Assembly (NCBI GenBank): GCA_951406725.2
Contig: OX597814.1
Span: 179,614,001 to 179,678,000, forward strand
Source: Octopus vulgaris
Lineage: Eukaryota
Direction of reading: 5' to 3'
Length of the DNA: 64,000 bases
The translations under genes and the position numbers were made by a program. Position 1 is the stretch's first letter. Each line of letters begins with the position of its first letter. Shown one piece after another: positions 8,975 to 56,320 of the stretch. Below the pieces are notes generated by a model. It saw only the letters and a program-made list of their open reading frames with translations, ran no database searches and had not been told where the DNA came from.

Positions 8975-9090
8975 TTATTCAGAAGTCTTATTTTTATCAC
9001 GTGCTTTCACTGCACTACTAAGCGCAGCTTTGTGTGTCTTGGGTATATGCTTTGGTTTGTTGTGATGCTCTTATTTTTACGTAGAATGTG
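8975..9090 (-). mobile_element. 3' end of R4/Dong LINE next to (TTA)n
   Basis: Matches 19480-19600 (cgtgctttcact...gcgcagct...gggtat...ttgtgatgctct). Confidence 0.75.
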
Positions 9091-19479: not shown

Positions 19480-19482
<3 letters not shown>

Positions 19483-19774
19483 TAGTTTTATTTTTATAGC
19501 GTGCTTTCACTTCACTACCGAGCGCAGCTCTGTGTGCCTTGGGTATGTGCTGTGATTTGTTGTGATGCTCTGATGGTTATTGTATGGAAAGTGTTCTGCG
19601 TAGGATGTTTGCAGTGCCTAGTAGTGCAATTTTCTGTATGTTATATGTGTTTGTAAGTCCTGGTGTTTTTGTTATGTATTTGTCTGAATATTTTTTTATC
19701 ATGCCTAATGCACCTACTATGATAGGAATTGTTTCTGTTTTCAGGTTCCACATTCTAGTTACCTCTATTTCCAG

Positions 19775-22430: not shown

Positions 22431-22467
22431 TCTATTATTATTACTATGATTATTATTATTATTATTA

Positions 22468-23024
22468 TGTGAGAGAGCAGTGCATGCCATCAAAGTGACA
22501 CTGGGGTAAAATATACGAAGCCCAATATACCCATCATGACTACCCGTCTGATAAAGGTACACCAGGCACATGCATCACAACCATATGTGCGCGACATGGT
22601 GATCTCATATCAAGATAAACAGCACATGACCTTGCAGGTGGGGCCCAGTTAGAATTTTCTTCAGGTTGAGTAGCCCATCCCGCCCAAAAGGTCCCTGAAT
22701 AAGGGTTGTTTAAGGATGTTGAAAGAACCACCCATGTTTCCAGAGGTGAATTATTCAAACTCCAAAGAATCCCTCTCAACACATAGCTATGATGCTCCCC
22801 CACTACTTCTGCTCGTGATCAGAGATGCACATATCGTCAGCCACTAAGGGACATGCTCAACTGGTTAAAGTCAAACAACTGACAAGCAAATCTGTGGTAT
22901 TGAGCAGAATATTTGGTGTAGCCCATCTTTTATACCAAGACAAAACAATGTACATGATAACACTTCCAATCAGTTAAGATTAGAAGCCATGAGAGCCACT
23001 GCCTGGTACTGCATCAGGGCATAG
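22468..23024 (-). mobile_element. ~555-bp non-coding repeat (family D) within (TTA)n
   Basis: Near-identical to 35819-37125 (tandem) and 45208-45528; no ORF. Strand inferred from target polarity and G-U hairpins. Confidence 0.85.
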
Positions 23025-26812: not shown

Positions 26813-26993
26813 CATATATATGCTCATATATATATATATAAATATACATATATAAATATATATATATATATATCACAATCAAGGAACGGCCATAATAGGC
26901 CATTCACCCACTAGAAATAACAGCCAAAGCTTCAACCGCAAAATAACATTAATTCCGTAAACCAGGAGAAAATTAAAAAACATTTACCCTGTA

Positions 26994-27100
26994 ATTTCTT
27001 ATACGATGCACCGTTTCATCTACTGTTTAATGGTAAACTAACCTGATTAAATTAAATCAAGTCAATCTTCCATAGGCCCTTAGATTCGTCAGTAAGAAAT
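26994..27100 (-). ncRNA. Type I hammerhead ribozyme
   Basis: Reverse-complement copy of 27607-27713. Confidence 0.88.
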
Positions 27101-27606
27101 AGCCAGATCGGAACAGATATTTTCACGAGGCATTTCTGTCCCTGCCTCGGCAATATCTGACCTAAAATTTTCAAATCATCGCACTCGCGCCAAATTTATC
27201 GGCAGCAAATAAATATAAGCCGCCAATTCCATTACGGAATTAACCAGAAAATTCATAATTAATCAATATAGGGTGGCAAAAAAAATTTTGTAGAATTTTT
27301 TTGCCACCAGCGGCCTAGTGGGAAAAAATTAAATAGTCATACACCATTTTTAAGTTCAACATCACAATCAAGGAACGGCCATACTAGGCCATTCACCCAC
27401 TAGAAATAACAGCCAAAGCTTCAACCGCAAAATAACATTAATTCCGTAAACCAGGAGAAAATTAAAAAACATTTACCCTGTAATTTCTTATACGATGCGC
27501 GAGTGCGATGATTTGGCGCGAGTGCGATGATTTGAAAATTTTAGGTCAGATATTGCCGAGGCAAGGGACAGAAATGCCTCGTGAAAATATCTGTTCCGAT
27601 CTGGCT

Positions 27607-27713
27607 ATTTCTTACTGACGAATCTAAGGGCCTATGGAAGATTGACTTGATTTAATTTAATCAGGTTAGTTTACCATTAAACAGTAGATGAAACGGTGCA
27701 TCGTATAAGAAAT
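27607..27713 (+). ncRNA. Type I hammerhead ribozyme with extended stem II
   Basis: atttctta-CUGACGA-atcta-[58-nt insert]-tagat-GAAA-cggtgcatcg-UA^taagaaat; 8-bp stem I; predicted cut after 27705. Confidence 0.88.
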
Positions 27714-27933
27714 TACAGGGTAAATGTTTTTTAATTTTCTCCTGGTTTACGGAATTAATGTTATTTTGCGGTTGAAGCTTTGGCTGTTATTTCTAGTGGG
27801 TGAATGGCCTATTATGGCCGTTCCTTGATTGTGATGTTGAACTTAAAAATGGTGTATGACTATTTAATTTTTTCCCACTAGGCCGCTGGTGGCAAAAAAA
27901 TTCTACAAAATTTTTTTTGCCACCCTATATTGA

Positions 27934-29137
<1,204 letters not shown>

Positions 29138-29159
29138 AAATGGAAATCTTATATTATCT

Positions 29160-29262
29160 ATTCTCCATTACACGCGTTTCATTTGTAAATAAGAATCACA
29201 AAGATTTGCTTGTTAGATAGTCATGTAATGAATTTTCTATTAAAACTCATCAGATAAAGAAT
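29160..29262 (-). ncRNA. Type I hammerhead ribozyme, with a degenerate inverted copy at 29327-29430 (+)
   Basis: attctttat-CUGAUGA-gttt...aaat-GAAA-cgcgtg-UA^atggagaat; 9-bp stem I with two G-U pairs. Confidence 0.75.
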
Positions 29263-29762
29263 AATTATAATAATAATAATAAGTATTATTATAATAATTA
29301 TAATCAATAATTATAATATTATAATTATTATCTATCTGATGAGTTTCTAATAGGAAATTCTTTACGTCTCTATCTAACGTGTAAATCTTTGTAATTCCTA
29401 TTAACAAAAGGAATGCGTATAATGGAGAATAATTAATTTCACAGGATTTCCACTTGCCTGTTTTATTACAAATTAACTCTGCTAATAGTTTTCCCATAAT
29501 TCTCAATTTTAATACGTATTTCGACTCATATACAGCACAAAACTATGGATACATATTAATTGTAATACTGGAATAAGTAGGTGTGTTTCAAGAGGAAACA
29601 GCGGGGATTTACCCTAACTAACTATATATATAAACGTGCTTGCGTAGGAAGAAGGCACAGGAGTATTTATGTGACAAGAAGCTTGCTTCCCAAACATATA
29701 TTTCCGGGTTCAGTACCACTGAATGTCACTAAAGCCTTCTGGGGGAAACTGAAAAAACCGTC

Positions 29763-29804
<42 letters not shown>

Positions 29805-29810
29805 ATAGGT

Positions 29811-31690
29811 AGATGATGGCTGAGCCCTCGTTACCGAGTGTGTCCATTGCACGAAGCTTAACTGTTATTGGTGCTGTGATCGAATGTGACTTTTTAGCCC
29901 AGCTAAAGATCTACAATGTCTTGTACAGAATTGGCAGCTAAAACCTTTACCAGCAATAGCTGGCTGTAGTTGTAACTGGGCTTTATGTACCTTTGCATGT
30001 CGTTTAAGTACTCCTGCCGAATTACACTCTCTTCCACATTCTTGACAGACATGATTAATATGGCGTGTAACACCACCACCAGTGGCCAGGTTGTCACTTA
30101 ACTTTCTCGCTTTATGACTACGAAGATGACTCTTGAGTCCAGCTTTACTGAGGCAGGGTCTTGCGCAGACACTGCATGTCAGCATTATAGGAAGACCCTT
30201 CCAATCTGGAAGTGTAACAGCGATGCCCTTCCTGACATCCCTCTTTACTTTTTCATGCGCAACTCTTGATTTCTCCAAAGTAGCTGTCCCCTTGTGCATA
30301 ATCCTTCTCCACCTGCTAAGATCAATAGCTATGCCCTCTCATGTGTCAGGAGAGATGCAAGCATCTCTCAAGGAAGCCTTCAGCAAGTCCTTTTACATTT
30401 TTTTTGGTTTATGTGGAAGTCTCGCAGGCATAGAGAAGAGAAGGGAGCACACATGCCTTGTACACCTTTATCATAGTCTTCTGCATATGTCTCGCCGACT
30501 CTAGAGGCGCCTTTCTAGTCTTCCGAAAGCATCACTTGCTTTCCTAATCCTGTATGGAATTTCATCATCATCCACATTGCCATATCTATTAACAATGCTT
30601 CCCAGGTAGACAAACTGATCAACTACATCAAGTCGTTTACCATACACCTAGATGTTTGGTTCAATATACTGCTTACAAGGAGCAGGTTGGTACATGGCAG
30701 TTTTCTTGAGATTGACTGTCAATCCTAAGGCAGTGCAAGCATCAGAGAATGCATTCAAAATGTGTTGCGTATCAGTCTCTGTGCGTTACTAGATCACAAT
30801 CATCTGCATACAAAAGGTCTCTTATGATAGAGGTAAGTAACTTTGTTTTTGCAGCAAAGCGCCTGATATTAAATATGCTGCCAGAGGTCCGATAATGGAT
30901 GTAAATACCATATCTGCAATGCAATACAGAAAACCATCGCAAAATATATGGCAAATAGGGTCGATGCCAGAATATCACACTGTTTCACTCCATTTCTTAT
31001 TGAAATGGGCTCCGACATTTTCCCTCTAACATTCACCCTACCATTCATGTCTTCATGAAAAGACCTAACCAAAGCAAGGAACCTTTCAGCACACCCAAGT
31101 TTCTGGAGAACTTCCCACAATGCTTTTCTTTTAACGGTATCAAAGGCCTTTATCAGATCGACAAACACCTGATACAAATCCAGACCCTGTTCCACACACT
31201 TATCCTGAAGCTGTCTAGCTGAAAAGATCATATCAGCAGTGCCACGTACCACACGAAAGCCAAATTGACTTTCTGGAAGAACACAATCTGCAACGTGTTT
31301 CGACAGACGATCCAGAAGTACCCTGCATAAAACCTTTCTTACGACAGAAAGCAATGATACTTCCTTATAGTTACCACAATCATTCCTGTTGCCCTTTCCC
31401 TTATACAAGACCACCATTACTGTATCTCTCCAGTCCTTAGGTACAGATTCACTAGCTCATATCTTACCAAACAAAGAGTGAAGTTGCTGCAGAAGCTTCT
31501 CACCACCATGATGTAACAACTCCGGATGTATGCCATCCATACCCGGAGACTTCCCATTATTCATACTTGAGACAGCCACTGCAACTTCTTCCAACTTTGG
31601 TGGTTCCGCGAATGCTGCCTTCACGGGTAATGTAGGGATGAGTAAGAACATCCTCACTAATTACAGACTGCTGATTAAAATGTTCATATA
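29811..31690 (-). mobile_element. RTE-clade LINE, same family as 28052-29082; RT domain to 3' end with internal deletion
   Basis: [63 protein letters not shown]; ~250-bp deletion near 30418. Confidence 0.93.
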
Positions 31691-34830: not shown

Positions 34831-35686
34831 AACGACAGACATTGCGTTAACAATGTCATCTGTAGTAAGTTTCAAATTAACTTTTTCTCATTCTTCCTCT
34901 CAATTTGTATTGAACCTGTAACAGGCTCATTGAAATAATACGACCAACCAAAGGATTATAGCGCACACCAACAGTTAAATGCAAAAACCGAAAGGCGTCA
35001 TCGAAAAGTAAATCTCAGCTTCCCGAGAGCTGAAGACAACCGTACTGCCTTTGTTCTCGCATGAATTACAAAATGAGATAGAATACGGCACTTATTAGAA
35101 CATACAAACTTGTCAAACATGAAATAAACGAAACACTTTGGAGAATTGCAGTTTGTTTTATTAATCGGAGCATCGTTATGCAGAACTGAAATGCTTCCTT
35201 TGCAATCTGAAACAGTTGCTTTCTGAAGATGGTTTGGTTGACACTATAAACAAACTCGAAAGGTTCTGCCACTAAGCATAAACATAAAAGTTAGAAGATA
35301 AACATAACATGGTTATTCATTACGTACTTGTTGACTCCTTTCCGTAAGTAAACGAAGTGCTGTATTTTTACGATCATTATTTTCTTTTTTCGGCAACTAT
35401 GTTGAATTTCTGTTTTATGTTCGACTTCTCTCTCTCTCTCTCATTATATTATTATTTGTCTTTATTTATTACCTCATATAGCTCACGTGAATATACCTAA
35501 CACTAACACTGGTGTTCTGTTAATGTAAAAGCAATATCGTTTATCTTTTGAAAATTGTGTTCAACGTAGATGGTTGAGGTAAATCATTACTCGTCTTGAT
35601 ATTCTAACGTAATTTGTCTGGTACATCACGTCACTATTTACATTATTTACATTCGACAGATATTTGTCCTCATCTTGTTTGTTGTT

Positions 35687-35732
35687 AACACAACGTTTCG
35701 GCTGATATACCCTCCAGCCTTCTTCAGGTGTC
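35687..35732 (-). ncRNA. Minimal type I hammerhead ribozyme
   Basis: gacac-CUGAAGA-a-ggctg-gagggtatat-cagcc-GAAAC-GUU^gtgtt; palindromic aacgtt stem III. Confidence 0.8.
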
Positions 35733-35818
35733 TTGGGGAAATTTCGAACCTGGGTTCTCATTCCTAAGGTATTCTTCGATGTTGCTGTTGTTATTATTAT
35801 TACTTTTATTATTATCAT

Positions 35819-37125
35819 TGAGTGAGAGAGCAGTTCATGCCATCAAAGTGACACTGGGGTAAAATATACGAAGCCCAATATACCCATCACGACTACCTGT
35901 CTGATAAAGGTACACCAGGCACATGCATCACAACCATATGTGCGCAACATGGTGATCTCATATCAAGATAAACAGCACATGACCTTGCAGGTGGGGCCCA
36001 GTTAGAATTTTCTTCAGGTTGAGTAGCCCATCCCGCTCAAAAGGTCCCTGAATAAGGGTTGTTTAAGGATGTTGAAAGAACCACCCATGTTTCCAGAGGT
36101 GAATTATTCAAACTCCAAAGAATCCTTCTCAACACATGGCTATGATGCTCCCCCACTACTTCTGCTCGTGATCAGAGATGCACATATCGTCAGCCACTAA
36201 GGGACATGCTCAACTGGTTAAGGTCAAACAACTGACAAGCAAATCTGTGGTATTGAGCAGAATATTTGCTGTAGCCCATCTTCTCTATTATTAGTATTAT
36301 TATTATTGAGTGAGCGAGCAGAGCATGCCATCAAAGTGACACTGGAGTAAAATATACGAAGCCCAGTATACCCATCATGACTACCCGTCTGATAAGGGTA
36401 CACCAGGCACATGCATCACAACCATATGTGCGCGACATGGTGATTTCATATCAAGACAAACAGCACATGACCTTGCAGGTGGAGCCCAGTTAGAATTTTC
36501 TTCAGTTCGAGTAACCCATCCCGCTCAAAAGGTCCCTGAATAAGGGTTGTTTAAGGACGTTGAACGAAACACCTATGTTTCCAGAGGTGAATTATTCAAA
36601 CTCCAAAGAATCCTTCTCAACACATGGCTATGATGCTCCCCCACTACTTCTGCTCGTGATCAGAGATGCACATATCGTCAGCCACTAAGGGACATGCTCA
36701 ACTGGTTAAGGTCAAACGACTGACAAGCAAATCTGTGGTATTGAGCAGAATATTTGCTGTAGCCCATCTTCTCTATTATTATTATTATTATTGAGTGAGC
36801 GAGCAGAGCATGCCATCAAAGTGACACTGGAGTAAAATATACGAAGCCCAGTATACCCATCATGACTACCCGTCTGATAAGGGTACACCAGGCACATGCA
36901 TCACAACCATATGTGCGCGACATGGTGATCTCATATCAAGACAAACAGCACATGACCTTGCAGGTGGAGCCCAGTTAGAATTTTCTTCAGATCGAGTAAC
37001 CCATCCCGCTCAAAAGGTCCCTGAATAAGGGTTGTTTAAGGACGTTGAACGAAACACCCATGTTTCCAGAGGTGAATTATTCAAACTCCAAAGAATCCTT
37101 CTCAACACATGGCTATGATGCTCCC
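35819..37125 (-). mobile_element. Tandem array of three truncated family D copies (35819-36282, 36308-36771, 36793-37125)
   Basis: Each begins gagtgag.gagcag..catgccatcaaagtgacactgg on + and is separated by (TTA)n. Confidence 0.9.
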
Positions 37126-37164
<39 letters not shown>

Positions 37165-37182
37165 CATTATTATTATTATTAT

Positions 37183-37280
37183 TTAGTAGTTTTATTTTTT
37201 ATAGCGTGCTTTCACTTCACTACCGAGCGCTATGTGCTGTGATTTGTTGTGATACTCTGATGGTTATTGTATGGAAAGTG

Positions 37281-37283
<3 letters not shown>
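37183..37283 (-). mobile_element. R4/Dong 3' end within (TTA)n
   Basis: Matches 19481-19595 with a small deletion. Confidence 0.8.
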
Positions 37284-37357
<74 letters not shown>

Positions 37358-37384
37358 TATTATTATTACTATTATTATTATTAC

Positions 37385-37452
<68 letters not shown>

Positions 37453-37562
37453 TCACTGCTTGGAATCGAACTCGGAATCTTGAGCCCGCGCTCTTAACCA
37501 CTATGCTATATGCCCGTGGGCAGTTATGGAGTGAATTTTAGGGCTTATGAATATAATATTTT

Positions 37563-37983
37563 TCTATCCTTCCATAATAGTGGTTCCCATATGCTGATAA
37601 ACCGACCCCTTATGCCCATAACTTATGGGTATATCCATTCAAAATCGCTAAAACATAGAAATGTGTACGCGATGCGTGCGTAAAGCTAGATACGTCAATA
37701 GACAGCCAGCTGTTATTTGACTGGACGGAGATAATTTTACCCTTGACAGTCTAATGCGCGTGCGCATTTGCAGACAGTCTGTATGGCTCAGCGCATTGTT
37801 TTGGTTTGCGATGACGCGTTATCATGTGCTTTGACTTTCAAACGTGGTCGCATTTTTGATTCGAGAAATGCAGGGAATAATTAATGAGTTAGACCAAGTG
37901 AATGACGAGGGAATGGGATTTTCATGAAAGACCAAATATGGTTGACTAGCACGAGACCCAGTAATGCCGGGTCATAGTGCTAG
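37563..37983 (+). mobile_element. Probable non-autonomous Helitron (3' end clear, 5' end tentative)
   Basis: gacccagtaatgccgggtc hairpin followed by atagtgCTAG|t. Confidence 0.6.
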
Positions 37984-45133: not shown

Positions 45134-45205
45134 TCCCATGTGGTCTAGTGGTTAGTATTCTTGGCTTTCACCCAGGAGGCCCGGTTTCGATTCCCGGCAT
45201 GGGAA
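45134..45205 (+). pseudogene. tRNA-Glu(TTC) pseudogene or retrocopy
   Basis: 72 nt, tcccatg/catggga acceptor stem, anticodon loop cTTTCac; G23>T and G53>T break the D and T stems; no CCA and no poly-T terminator. Confidence 0.85.
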
Positions 45206-45207
45206 CG

Positions 45208-45528
45208 CTATGCCCTGATGCAGTACCAGGCAGTGGCCTTCATGCCTTCTGATCTTAACTGATTGGAAGTGTTATCATATACTTTGTTTTGTCTTGGTAT
45301 AAAAGATGGGCTACAGCAAATATTCTGCTCAATACCACAGATTTGCTTGTCAGTTTTTTTACCTTAACCAGTTGAGCATGTCCCTTAGTGGCTGACAATA
45401 TGTGCATCTCTGACCACGAGCAGAAGTAGTAGAGGAGAGTTATAACCATGTGTTGAGAGGGATTCTCTGGAGTTTGAATAATTCCCCTCGGGAAACATAG
45501 GTGTTTCGTTCAACCTCCTTAAATAACC
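45208..45528 (+). mobile_element. Family D 5' portion, directly after tRNA-Glu
   Basis: Reverse-complement match to 22700-23024. Confidence 0.88.
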
Positions 45529-55169: not shown

Positions 55170-55350
55170 TGCTCTTAACCACTACGCCATATGCTCGTGG
55201 GCATATGGCGTTGTGGTTAAGAGCGCGGACAACTAACCCCAAGATTCTGAGTTCGATTCCAGGCAGTGACCTCAATAACAATAATAATAATAATAATATT
55301 AATAATAATAATAACAACAACAACATCAAAAATACCCCAGGAATAAGAAA
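55170..55350 (+). mobile_element. Family E head, (AAT)n and start of tail, preceded by an inverted duplicate of the head
   Basis: gctcttaaccactacgccatatgctc-gt-gggcatatggcgttgtggttaagagc fold-back; B box gagttcgattcc. Confidence 0.8.
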
Positions 55351-55900: not shown

Positions 55901-56098
55901 AATCGAACTCGGAATCTTGAGGTTAGTTTCCCGCGCTCTTAACCACTACGCCATATAGTCTTAGGAATGAGAACCCAAGTTCGAAATTTCCCCGAGACAC
56001 CTGATAAAGGCTGGAGCGTATATCAGCCGAAACGTTGTGTTAACAACAAACAAGATGAGGACAAATATCCGTCAAATGTAAATAATGAAAATAATGTA
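55901..56098 (+). mobile_element. Family E: inverted head fused to HHR tail (HHR 55996-56041, G8>A)
   Basis: gacac-CUGAUAA-a-ggctg...cagcc-GAAACGUU^gtgtt; the tail matches the reverse complement of 35633-35768. Confidence 0.82.
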
Positions 56099-56320
56099 CA
56101 TTATGATTTCTTCAAAACGTTATGGTATTTTCACTCCCTCTTTGTCAAAACCCATTGGAGTATACTGTTATTGGAATTTTTTTTAATTTTTACTTTTGTG
56201 TTACATATCCATCCTATATGCCCTATAGAAAAACTTAACCCACCACTTACTATTTTAAGTTTAGTCATTTACTCAACGTACCAAAGCGACACATAAGCAA
56301 AATGGTATGATTTAAACATA

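Follow-up and report, generated by a model that had tools for sequence, protein, structure and literature searches.

A tRNA-like repeat with a hammerhead motif in Octopus vulgaris is the pseudo-LTR and reading frame start of a Penelope-like retrotransposon, with a likely Pol III promoter in its head

The composite repeat described in this study, consisting of a tRNA-like head, an (AAT)n spacer and a tail with a hammerhead motif, is the pseudo-LTR and the start of the open reading frame (ORF) of an autonomous Penelope-like retrotransposon (PLE), and is not a free SINE. The joint reading, in which the tRNA-like head of this pseudo-LTR also acts as the Pol III promoter of the element, is considered likely. 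The repeat was identified in a window of 64,000 nucleotides, this being the whole stretch analysed, on contig OX597814.1 of Octopus vulgaris, where a sequence-only reading had assembled it from three loci and proposed a Pol III SINE that parasitises Penelope machinery. All three loci, with head, (AAT)n and tail, are present in the window sequence, and the connection to Penelope was upheld by junctions with the ORF, but the separate SINE lineage was not, as the same two haplotypes occur with and without the ORF. The parts of the three copies are:

37545..37596, - strand: end of the Penelope RT/GIY-YIG ORF, last 17 codons and stop (stop 37547-37545), 92.6% to the family ORF end
37516..37544, - strand: stop-to-head spacer, 29 nt, ending TGCCC-AC
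37447..37515, - strand: tRNA-like head with A and B boxes and an 8-nt internal deletion in this copy
37286..37446, - strand: (AAT)n spacer, expanded (family median 28 nt)
35798..37285, - strand: later insertions in the AAT tract, not parts of the element
37285-37185, - strand: LINE 3' end (100 nt) inside the AAT tract
37125-35798, - strand: 2.7 tandem copies of a 488-nt repeat inside the AAT tract
35632..35783, - strand: tail, being the 3' part of the pseudo-LTR and the first 42 ORF codons (ATG 35761), short-end form
35687..35732, - strand: minimal type I hammerhead, core intact, predicted cut after 35692, within the ORF
55171..55350, + strand: solo copy 2, with inverted head piece, GT loop, head, AAT spacer and the first ~30 nt of the tail, then broken off
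55171-55194: inverted head piece of copy 2
55199-55275, + strand: head of copy 2
55322-55350, + strand: tail start of copy 2, first ~30 nt
55901..56104, + strand: copy 3, an inverted head piece joined to a tail
55901-55956: inverted head piece of copy 3
55960-56104, + strand: tail of copy 3

Locus 1 (35632-37596, - strand) is an ORF-linked copy, 5'-truncated at 37596. It had been described as a head and tail split across 37517-35633, which was correct for both parts, but the Penelope ORF end directly before the head was missed. The split was caused by the 100-nt LINE 3' end and the 2.7 copies of the 488-nt repeat in the AAT tract, and insert types of this kind recur at L005, L020, L024 and L030. 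The TGCCC at the end of the 29-nt spacer pairs with the first five bases of the head, and transcription may start near this spacer.

The surroundings of locus 1 contain several other repeats. The 105 nt past 37596 are part of an abundant, unrelated repeat with short internal hairpins (37596-37900, - strand, and L192-L220) into which locus 1 was inserted, and do not belong to the Penelope element. The LINE 3' end, putatively Dong/R4-like, sits in AAT tracts at 37185-37285 (- strand), 19481-19595, 8981-9074 and L030, and at L030 the last LINE coding residues are visible upstream of it. The repeat of ~500 nt (35798-37125 and 22444-23024 on the - strand, 45208-45528 on the + strand) inserts into (AAT)n, sometimes in tandem, and is also found inside the head-tail spacer at L005, L020, L024 and L120; the repeat has a variable 5' end. 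A full tRNA-like sequence with a duplicated 5' piece (45134-45205; Rfam tRNA, 50.4 bits) is fused directly to one copy, and the copy at 23024 is without it. Long inverted repeats lie at 28477-30421 and 26872-27941 (656-nt arms, 91%; 272- and 244-nt arms, 100%).

Genome walking from the window yielded a majority unit of 2659 nt with a single 838-codon RT and GIY-YIG frame, the majority sequence being built by script from 13–45 copies per segment. The parts are ordered as ORF end, 29 nt, tRNA-like head, AAT spacer, tail with ATG and hammerhead, and the remaining RT and GIY-YIG frame, with the ATG of the majority sequence lying 23 nt into the tail. The 79 nt 5' of the head (37520-37598) also precede the head in 3 of the first 60 loci, and a search with these 79 nt gave 29 further loci, all of which continue into head and/or tail; many are preceded by GIY-YIG/endonuclease-like and RT coding sequence, and two further upstream walking steps reached RT and then the N-terminal region. 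On the other side, the tail passes directly into the ORF in L294, L282, L283, L288 and L310, with ORF end, head, tail and ORF body present in order in L294. The first 42 codons in the window tail match the N-terminus of P0001, an intact protein from the database, at 52% over 33 aa (E 3.5e-7 among four proteins compared). The junctions at both sides, together with this match, are what identify head, spacer and tail as pseudo-LTR and ORF start, and since contigs of four further organism labels span the ORF-end/head junction, the arrangement is common to relatives.

The majority 838-aa frame shares 57% identity over 831 aa with P0001 and 37% over 809 aa with the Anolis protein P0034, and the latter value, together with the domain order, points to the Penelope/Poseidon clade. 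Pfam RVT_1 matched the real copy L259 (E 1.5e-7) and Pfam GIY-YIG gave no score on L265, the sole C-terminal piece run; the endonuclease is a predicted one, assigned from the GIY-YIG motif and homology over the whole length. No close relative of the protein was found in the PDB. A genome-wide Pfam GIY-YIG search gave other PLE families, with head or tail in 0 of the 30 loci examined of 148 matches, and the ORF-bearing partner was therefore reached by walking from the window. Copies are ~93% (median) identical to the majority, with 96% for the best segment; no intact copy was among those seen, the full ORF in this genome being known only as majority sequence, and no complete repeat-ORF-repeat copy was among the loci examined. 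A single ORF with RT and C-terminal GIY-YIG, a pseudo-LTR, a minimal hammerhead, an optional tail and an inverted 5' copy were all found, and on every feature tested the element is a member of the EN+ Penelope-like elements.

Other PLEs were also observed in these searches. A young second family (L171-L177), present on several contigs, has many intact 781-codon RT/GIY-YIG frames, which in L172, L173 and L174 are preceded by a separate frame of 350–480 codons, and a long repeat-rich 3' region; no hammerhead was found in it by descriptor search of these copies. Another PLE copy (L180) carries a U3-A8 variant hammerhead on both strands at its two ends, which are inverted repeats.

AAT tracts in this genome do attract other elements, which would allow head and tail to be separate repeats that meet by insertion in such tracts, or the tail to derive from an ordinary LINE. 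The fixed order of ORF, head, tail and ORF excludes both, the tail being the N-terminus of a GIY-YIG/RT protein, and the probability left to this explanation is negligible. The count of heads that co-occur with the tail, which the sequence-only reading had proposed as a check, showed a same-strand tail at most 1.4 kb downstream in 135 of 145 head rows, many of which had been selected on head, tail or ORF; among head-selected loci other than those of the window it was 28 of 29. The independent occurrence of head and tail that would have spoken against a composite family was thus not what was found, and the proposed search for an autonomous PLE sharing the tail led to one that shares head, spacer and tail.

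The family is abundant, with a piece of it in 13, and a head in 9, of 100 evenly spaced 10-kb stretches. This corresponds to an estimated ~36,000 insertions genome-wide (95% range 19,000–62,000), a rough number scaled from a sample of 1.0 Mb to a 2.8-Gb genome of 227 contigs. The 3' ends of 238 tails fall into 107 short, 10 between, 108 long and 13 continuing into the ORF, short and long ends lying ~35 nt apart; the tail end given previously agrees with the short form, but about half of the copies run ~35 nt further. An optional tail has been tied to two internal priming sites in an anole element, according to the available part of PMC11167929. In 49 of 57 divergent (inverted) pairs, a long end is combined with a short one (p 1e-8), which is also described in the portion of PMC8557442 that was available. 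A flanking direct repeat of at least 8 nt (8–14 nt) was found in 29 of the 57 divergent pairs vs. 2.2% of mismatched controls. The copies are dispersed solos or divergent pairs, and not head-to-tail tandem units with ribozyme-set ends. At L282, L290, L296, L304, L294, L297, L302 and L303, N-terminal ORF pieces are followed ~300–400 nt on by head and tail or by the tail, which suggests template jumps, or insertion into the element's own ORF at a preferred region.

Judged by eye, the 58 tail-selected loci comprise 31 that start at -12 to +6 of the head, 8 that extend into the ORF end, 3 whose start lies further inside the head and 16 with no forward head within 1.5 kb. The solo repeat is therefore the commonest form among tail-selected loci (31 vs. 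8 of 58), whereas solo and ORF-linked heads are about equal in 1.0 Mb of random DNA (4 vs. 3). This commonness, and the retention of both boxes and the tail, would be expected of a Pol III SINE lineage that uses the Penelope protein in trans, with a promoter, protein-binding and priming region of its own. However, the solo copies are without the upstream TATA-like box, and a comparison of 83 solo with 62 ORF-linked head rows revealed no solo-specific change beyond nominal p 0.04 or CpG sites, with non-CpG subfamily variants at equal frequency in both forms (p 0.36–0.69). Two haplotypes, defined by three linked non-CpG sites, are present in 35 and 18 solo and in 10 and 6 ORF-linked copies, so that at least two source elements each made both forms. 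No separate SINE lineage was found among these copies, the partner sharing the whole sequence and not just a 3' end, and such a lineage is regarded as improbable.

The solo copies instead fit priming within a full transcript at its first repeat, in which case their common start would place the RNA 5' end near -7 of the head. Many of them open with a 5-bp hairpin that uses the first bases of the head, often extended as a fold-back, and the pile-up of solo 5' ends could instead stem from fold-back at this small hairpin and not from the RNA end. The loop sequence GT occurs in 7 of 46 solo copies and in 1 of 46 ORF-linked ones, which agrees with a palindrome of which one or the other arm may persist.

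The presence of a hammerhead in the tail was confirmed by hand and descriptor as a minimal type I motif with its core, a 5-bp stem II, a palindromic ACGU helix III and a GUU cut triplet; Rfam gave no hammerhead match at 35600-35830, nor any among the 150 listed of 189 window-wide matches. Minimal type I hammerheads have been described for Penelope repeats (PMC4209133). The core is intact in 111 of 195 copies spanning it, and in 17 of 29 relatives the same core with different stems is found after the ORF; in copy 3, an A replaces core G8 and its hammerhead (55996-56041) would be inactive. The suggestion that the ribozyme defines an end of the element had to be rejected, as ends do not pile up at the predicted cut, tail position 92: of 261 tail pieces, 3 have their start at 92-93 and 2 their end at 91-100, and a slight excess of 5' starts over tail 91-110 (25 of 261) is diffuse. 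Raw RNA reads from a related organism likewise showed no pile-up at this position. Cleavage by the hammerhead probably requires a dimer or the help of a protein, and does not set ends.

The claim of a tRNA-like head was borne out by an A box at +8, an exact B box and tRNA spacing. The head aligns over 73 nt with tRNA genes of the same genome, best with tRNA-Arg (z 8.4 and 6.8 vs. shuffles), in a comparison with 12 of 20 fetched tRNA genes that covered 8 isotype labels; an origin from tRNA-Thr is unsupported, as Arg scored higher among these labels. ARAGORN called a tRNA in 0 of 4 head copies tested. Conservation of the boxes among copies (92–95% vs. 91%) is uninformative since the copies are dead. 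A tRNA module beside the ORF is absent in 79 metagenome PLE relatives, and a tRNA-like match in one relative (L394), considered as such a module, lies ~490 nt before a truncated ORF and looks unrelated.

Transcription by Pol III is rated as probable for at least the template RNA, and as doubtful for the mRNA as well. On the sense strand, the 2659-nt unit has 0 T4 runs vs. 29 A4 runs, and 0 T3VT2/T2VT3 motifs, which are weak Pol III terminators. Shuffling synonymous codons gave P 0.025 for T4, and 0.009 and 0.0025 for wider near-T4 patterns that were picked after T4 = 0 had been seen, while base shuffles gave P 0.01–0.0007 and a first-order Markov null P 0.11; the deficit of T runs is modest, at P 0.003–0.1 depending on the null model. 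Among real copies, T4 occurs at 0.42 per kb (89 kb in total), where neutral decay of a T4-free source predicts 0.44. The second PLE family of the same genome has 8–9 T4 in 2343 nt, and the median of 55 metagenome relatives is 3.7 T4 per kb. Among these 55, two without a tRNA module have no T4 in 1.9–2.3 kb (one under the wider pattern). The metagenome PLE L386 lacks a tRNA module as well as any T4 or near-T4 motif throughout 2.27 kb, but has a TATA-like box and a hammerhead, and is a useful control for the T-run argument.

A TATA-like TTTATAA lies at -36 to -30 and would suit initiation by Pol II from the inferred start site; the same Penelope element may be transcribed by Pol II from this box at the ORF stop, or by read-through, with the tRNA-like segment as a SINE head captured in its 5' leader. 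The solo copies would then start at the head because the Pol II start site is there, or because the hairpin triggers fold-back. This agrees with the TATA-like boxes upstream of the hammerhead in L386 and L394, and with the T4-free stretches of the two relatives mentioned above. As far as the available text of these papers extends, PLE promoters and start sites have been located in the pLTR (PMC8557442, PMC6765202), and autonomous elements are argued to need Pol II (PMC10886601). Pol II RNA would also resolve the problem of translation: an uncapped Pol III RNA of ~2.6 kb must still be translated, with a two-codon upstream ORF preceding the main ORF in the inferred transcript, which is an objection to Pol III. 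Against Pol II, chance would have to account for the full A/B spacing found exactly at the start site, and for the absence of T4 and near-T4 terminators over 2.66 kb. An upstream TATA also helps Pol III at many tRNA genes. Overall, transcription by Pol II with a captured SINE head is possible, though rather unlikely. In three raw RNA runs from a related organism, the strands were equal, 78–79% of reads continued into unrelated sequence and neither starts nor ends piled up; no public run recorded as RNA was listed as containing the stretch.

If Pol III does transcribe the element, the transcript would begin ~7 nt ahead of the head, cross the ORF with its lack of T runs and continue into the following repeat. 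AT-rich DNA would be nicked by the Penelope protein, with reverse transcription beginning at two internal positions of the RNA, both in the tail and separated by ~35 nt, as has been demonstrated for the anole element in the accessible part of PMC11167929. A start at the first repeat would give a solo copy of ~290 nt, from the RNA 5' end to the tail, which is the SINE-like form; if the start were at the second repeat instead, the products would be ORF-bearing copies truncated at the 5' side. Inverted pairs in one target duplication would arise when both nicks prime and the products are joined or fold back at the self-complementary 5' end. In its widest form, which is put forward tentatively, an autonomous coding retrotransposon would be transcribed end to end by Pol III via a captured tRNA promoter. 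Terminators would have been purged from the 2.5-kb ORF, and translation would proceed from uncapped RNA with an A/U-rich leader. The internal start of Penelope reverse transcription, with no poly(A) needed, would shed SINE-like solos in cis by the tens of thousands.

The following comparisons are limited to the portions of the cited papers that were available. The element resembles Penelope/Poseidon PLEs such as the anole PAc (PMC11167929, PMC8557442) in its one ORF with RT and C-terminal GIY-YIG, an ORF start that overlaps the hammerhead region of the pLTR, an optional tail of 30–40 bp on one end, an inverted truncated copy at the 5' side and a hammerhead cut that is not an end. Unlike PAc, the Octopus pLTR opens with a tRNA-like A/B-box module, which is not mentioned in the available text, and the sense strand of the element is without T4 runs. 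Schistosome Sm-alpha/Sj-alpha (PMC2770079, PMC6765202) likewise combine a tRNA-derived Pol III promoter, putative in Octopus, with a hammerhead in one short repeat. They are non-coding and often tandem, cleavage frees monomers and no autonomous partner is named in the parts available, whereas the Octopus module belongs to a protein-coding element whose ends do not coincide with the cut. Cassandra, Helenus and Ajax (TRIMp3, PMC10886601) also have a small-RNA-derived Pol III promoter in a terminal repeat (again putative in Octopus), proposed there to originate by insertion of a SINE into the repeat, but are non-autonomous LTR elements of 311–1263 bp, and not a 2.66-kb protein-coding PLE. Animal non-LTR retrozymes (bioRxiv 10.64898/2026.07.22.740005) are similarly pLTR-derived, PLE-linked non-coding units with a type I hammerhead; whereas they are defined as head-to-tail tandem arrays, the Octopus family, with its tRNA-like head, occurs as scattered solo copies or as inverted pairs. 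A search of the openly accessible literature gave no account of a PLE whose repeat contains a tRNA module.

The octopus tRNA SINEs OK, OR1 and OR2 were reportedly described by Ohshima and Okada in 1994. They share with the solo copies a tRNA-derived head and an octopus-type genome (cited in the available part of PMC4758252, where OR2 is listed as a CORE SINE), and were compared by description. The solo form may already carry a SINE name (OK/OR1/OR2, Repbase or Dfam). The octopus repeat paper PMC13282606 gives counts only in the part available.

The unusual part of this element is the promoter module, that is, A and B boxes at tRNA spacing and a T-run-free sense strand in a coding PLE, as the known Pol III promoters of retroelements belong to non-coding passengers (SINEs, Cassandra, Helenus). 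A coding PLE with a tRNA module at its start site makes a Pol III-driven retrotransposon mRNA a testable question, and if the module does serve as a Pol III promoter, the small-RNA polymerase would be reading a self-sufficient retrotransposon, which is unusual. That an abundant 'SINE' of this genome is the end repeat of a Penelope element bears on repeat annotation, and its solo copies would map the RNA 5' end and the two priming sites. Should Pol III transcribe the element from end to end, this would offer a direct route for the birth of a SINE from its own autonomous partner.
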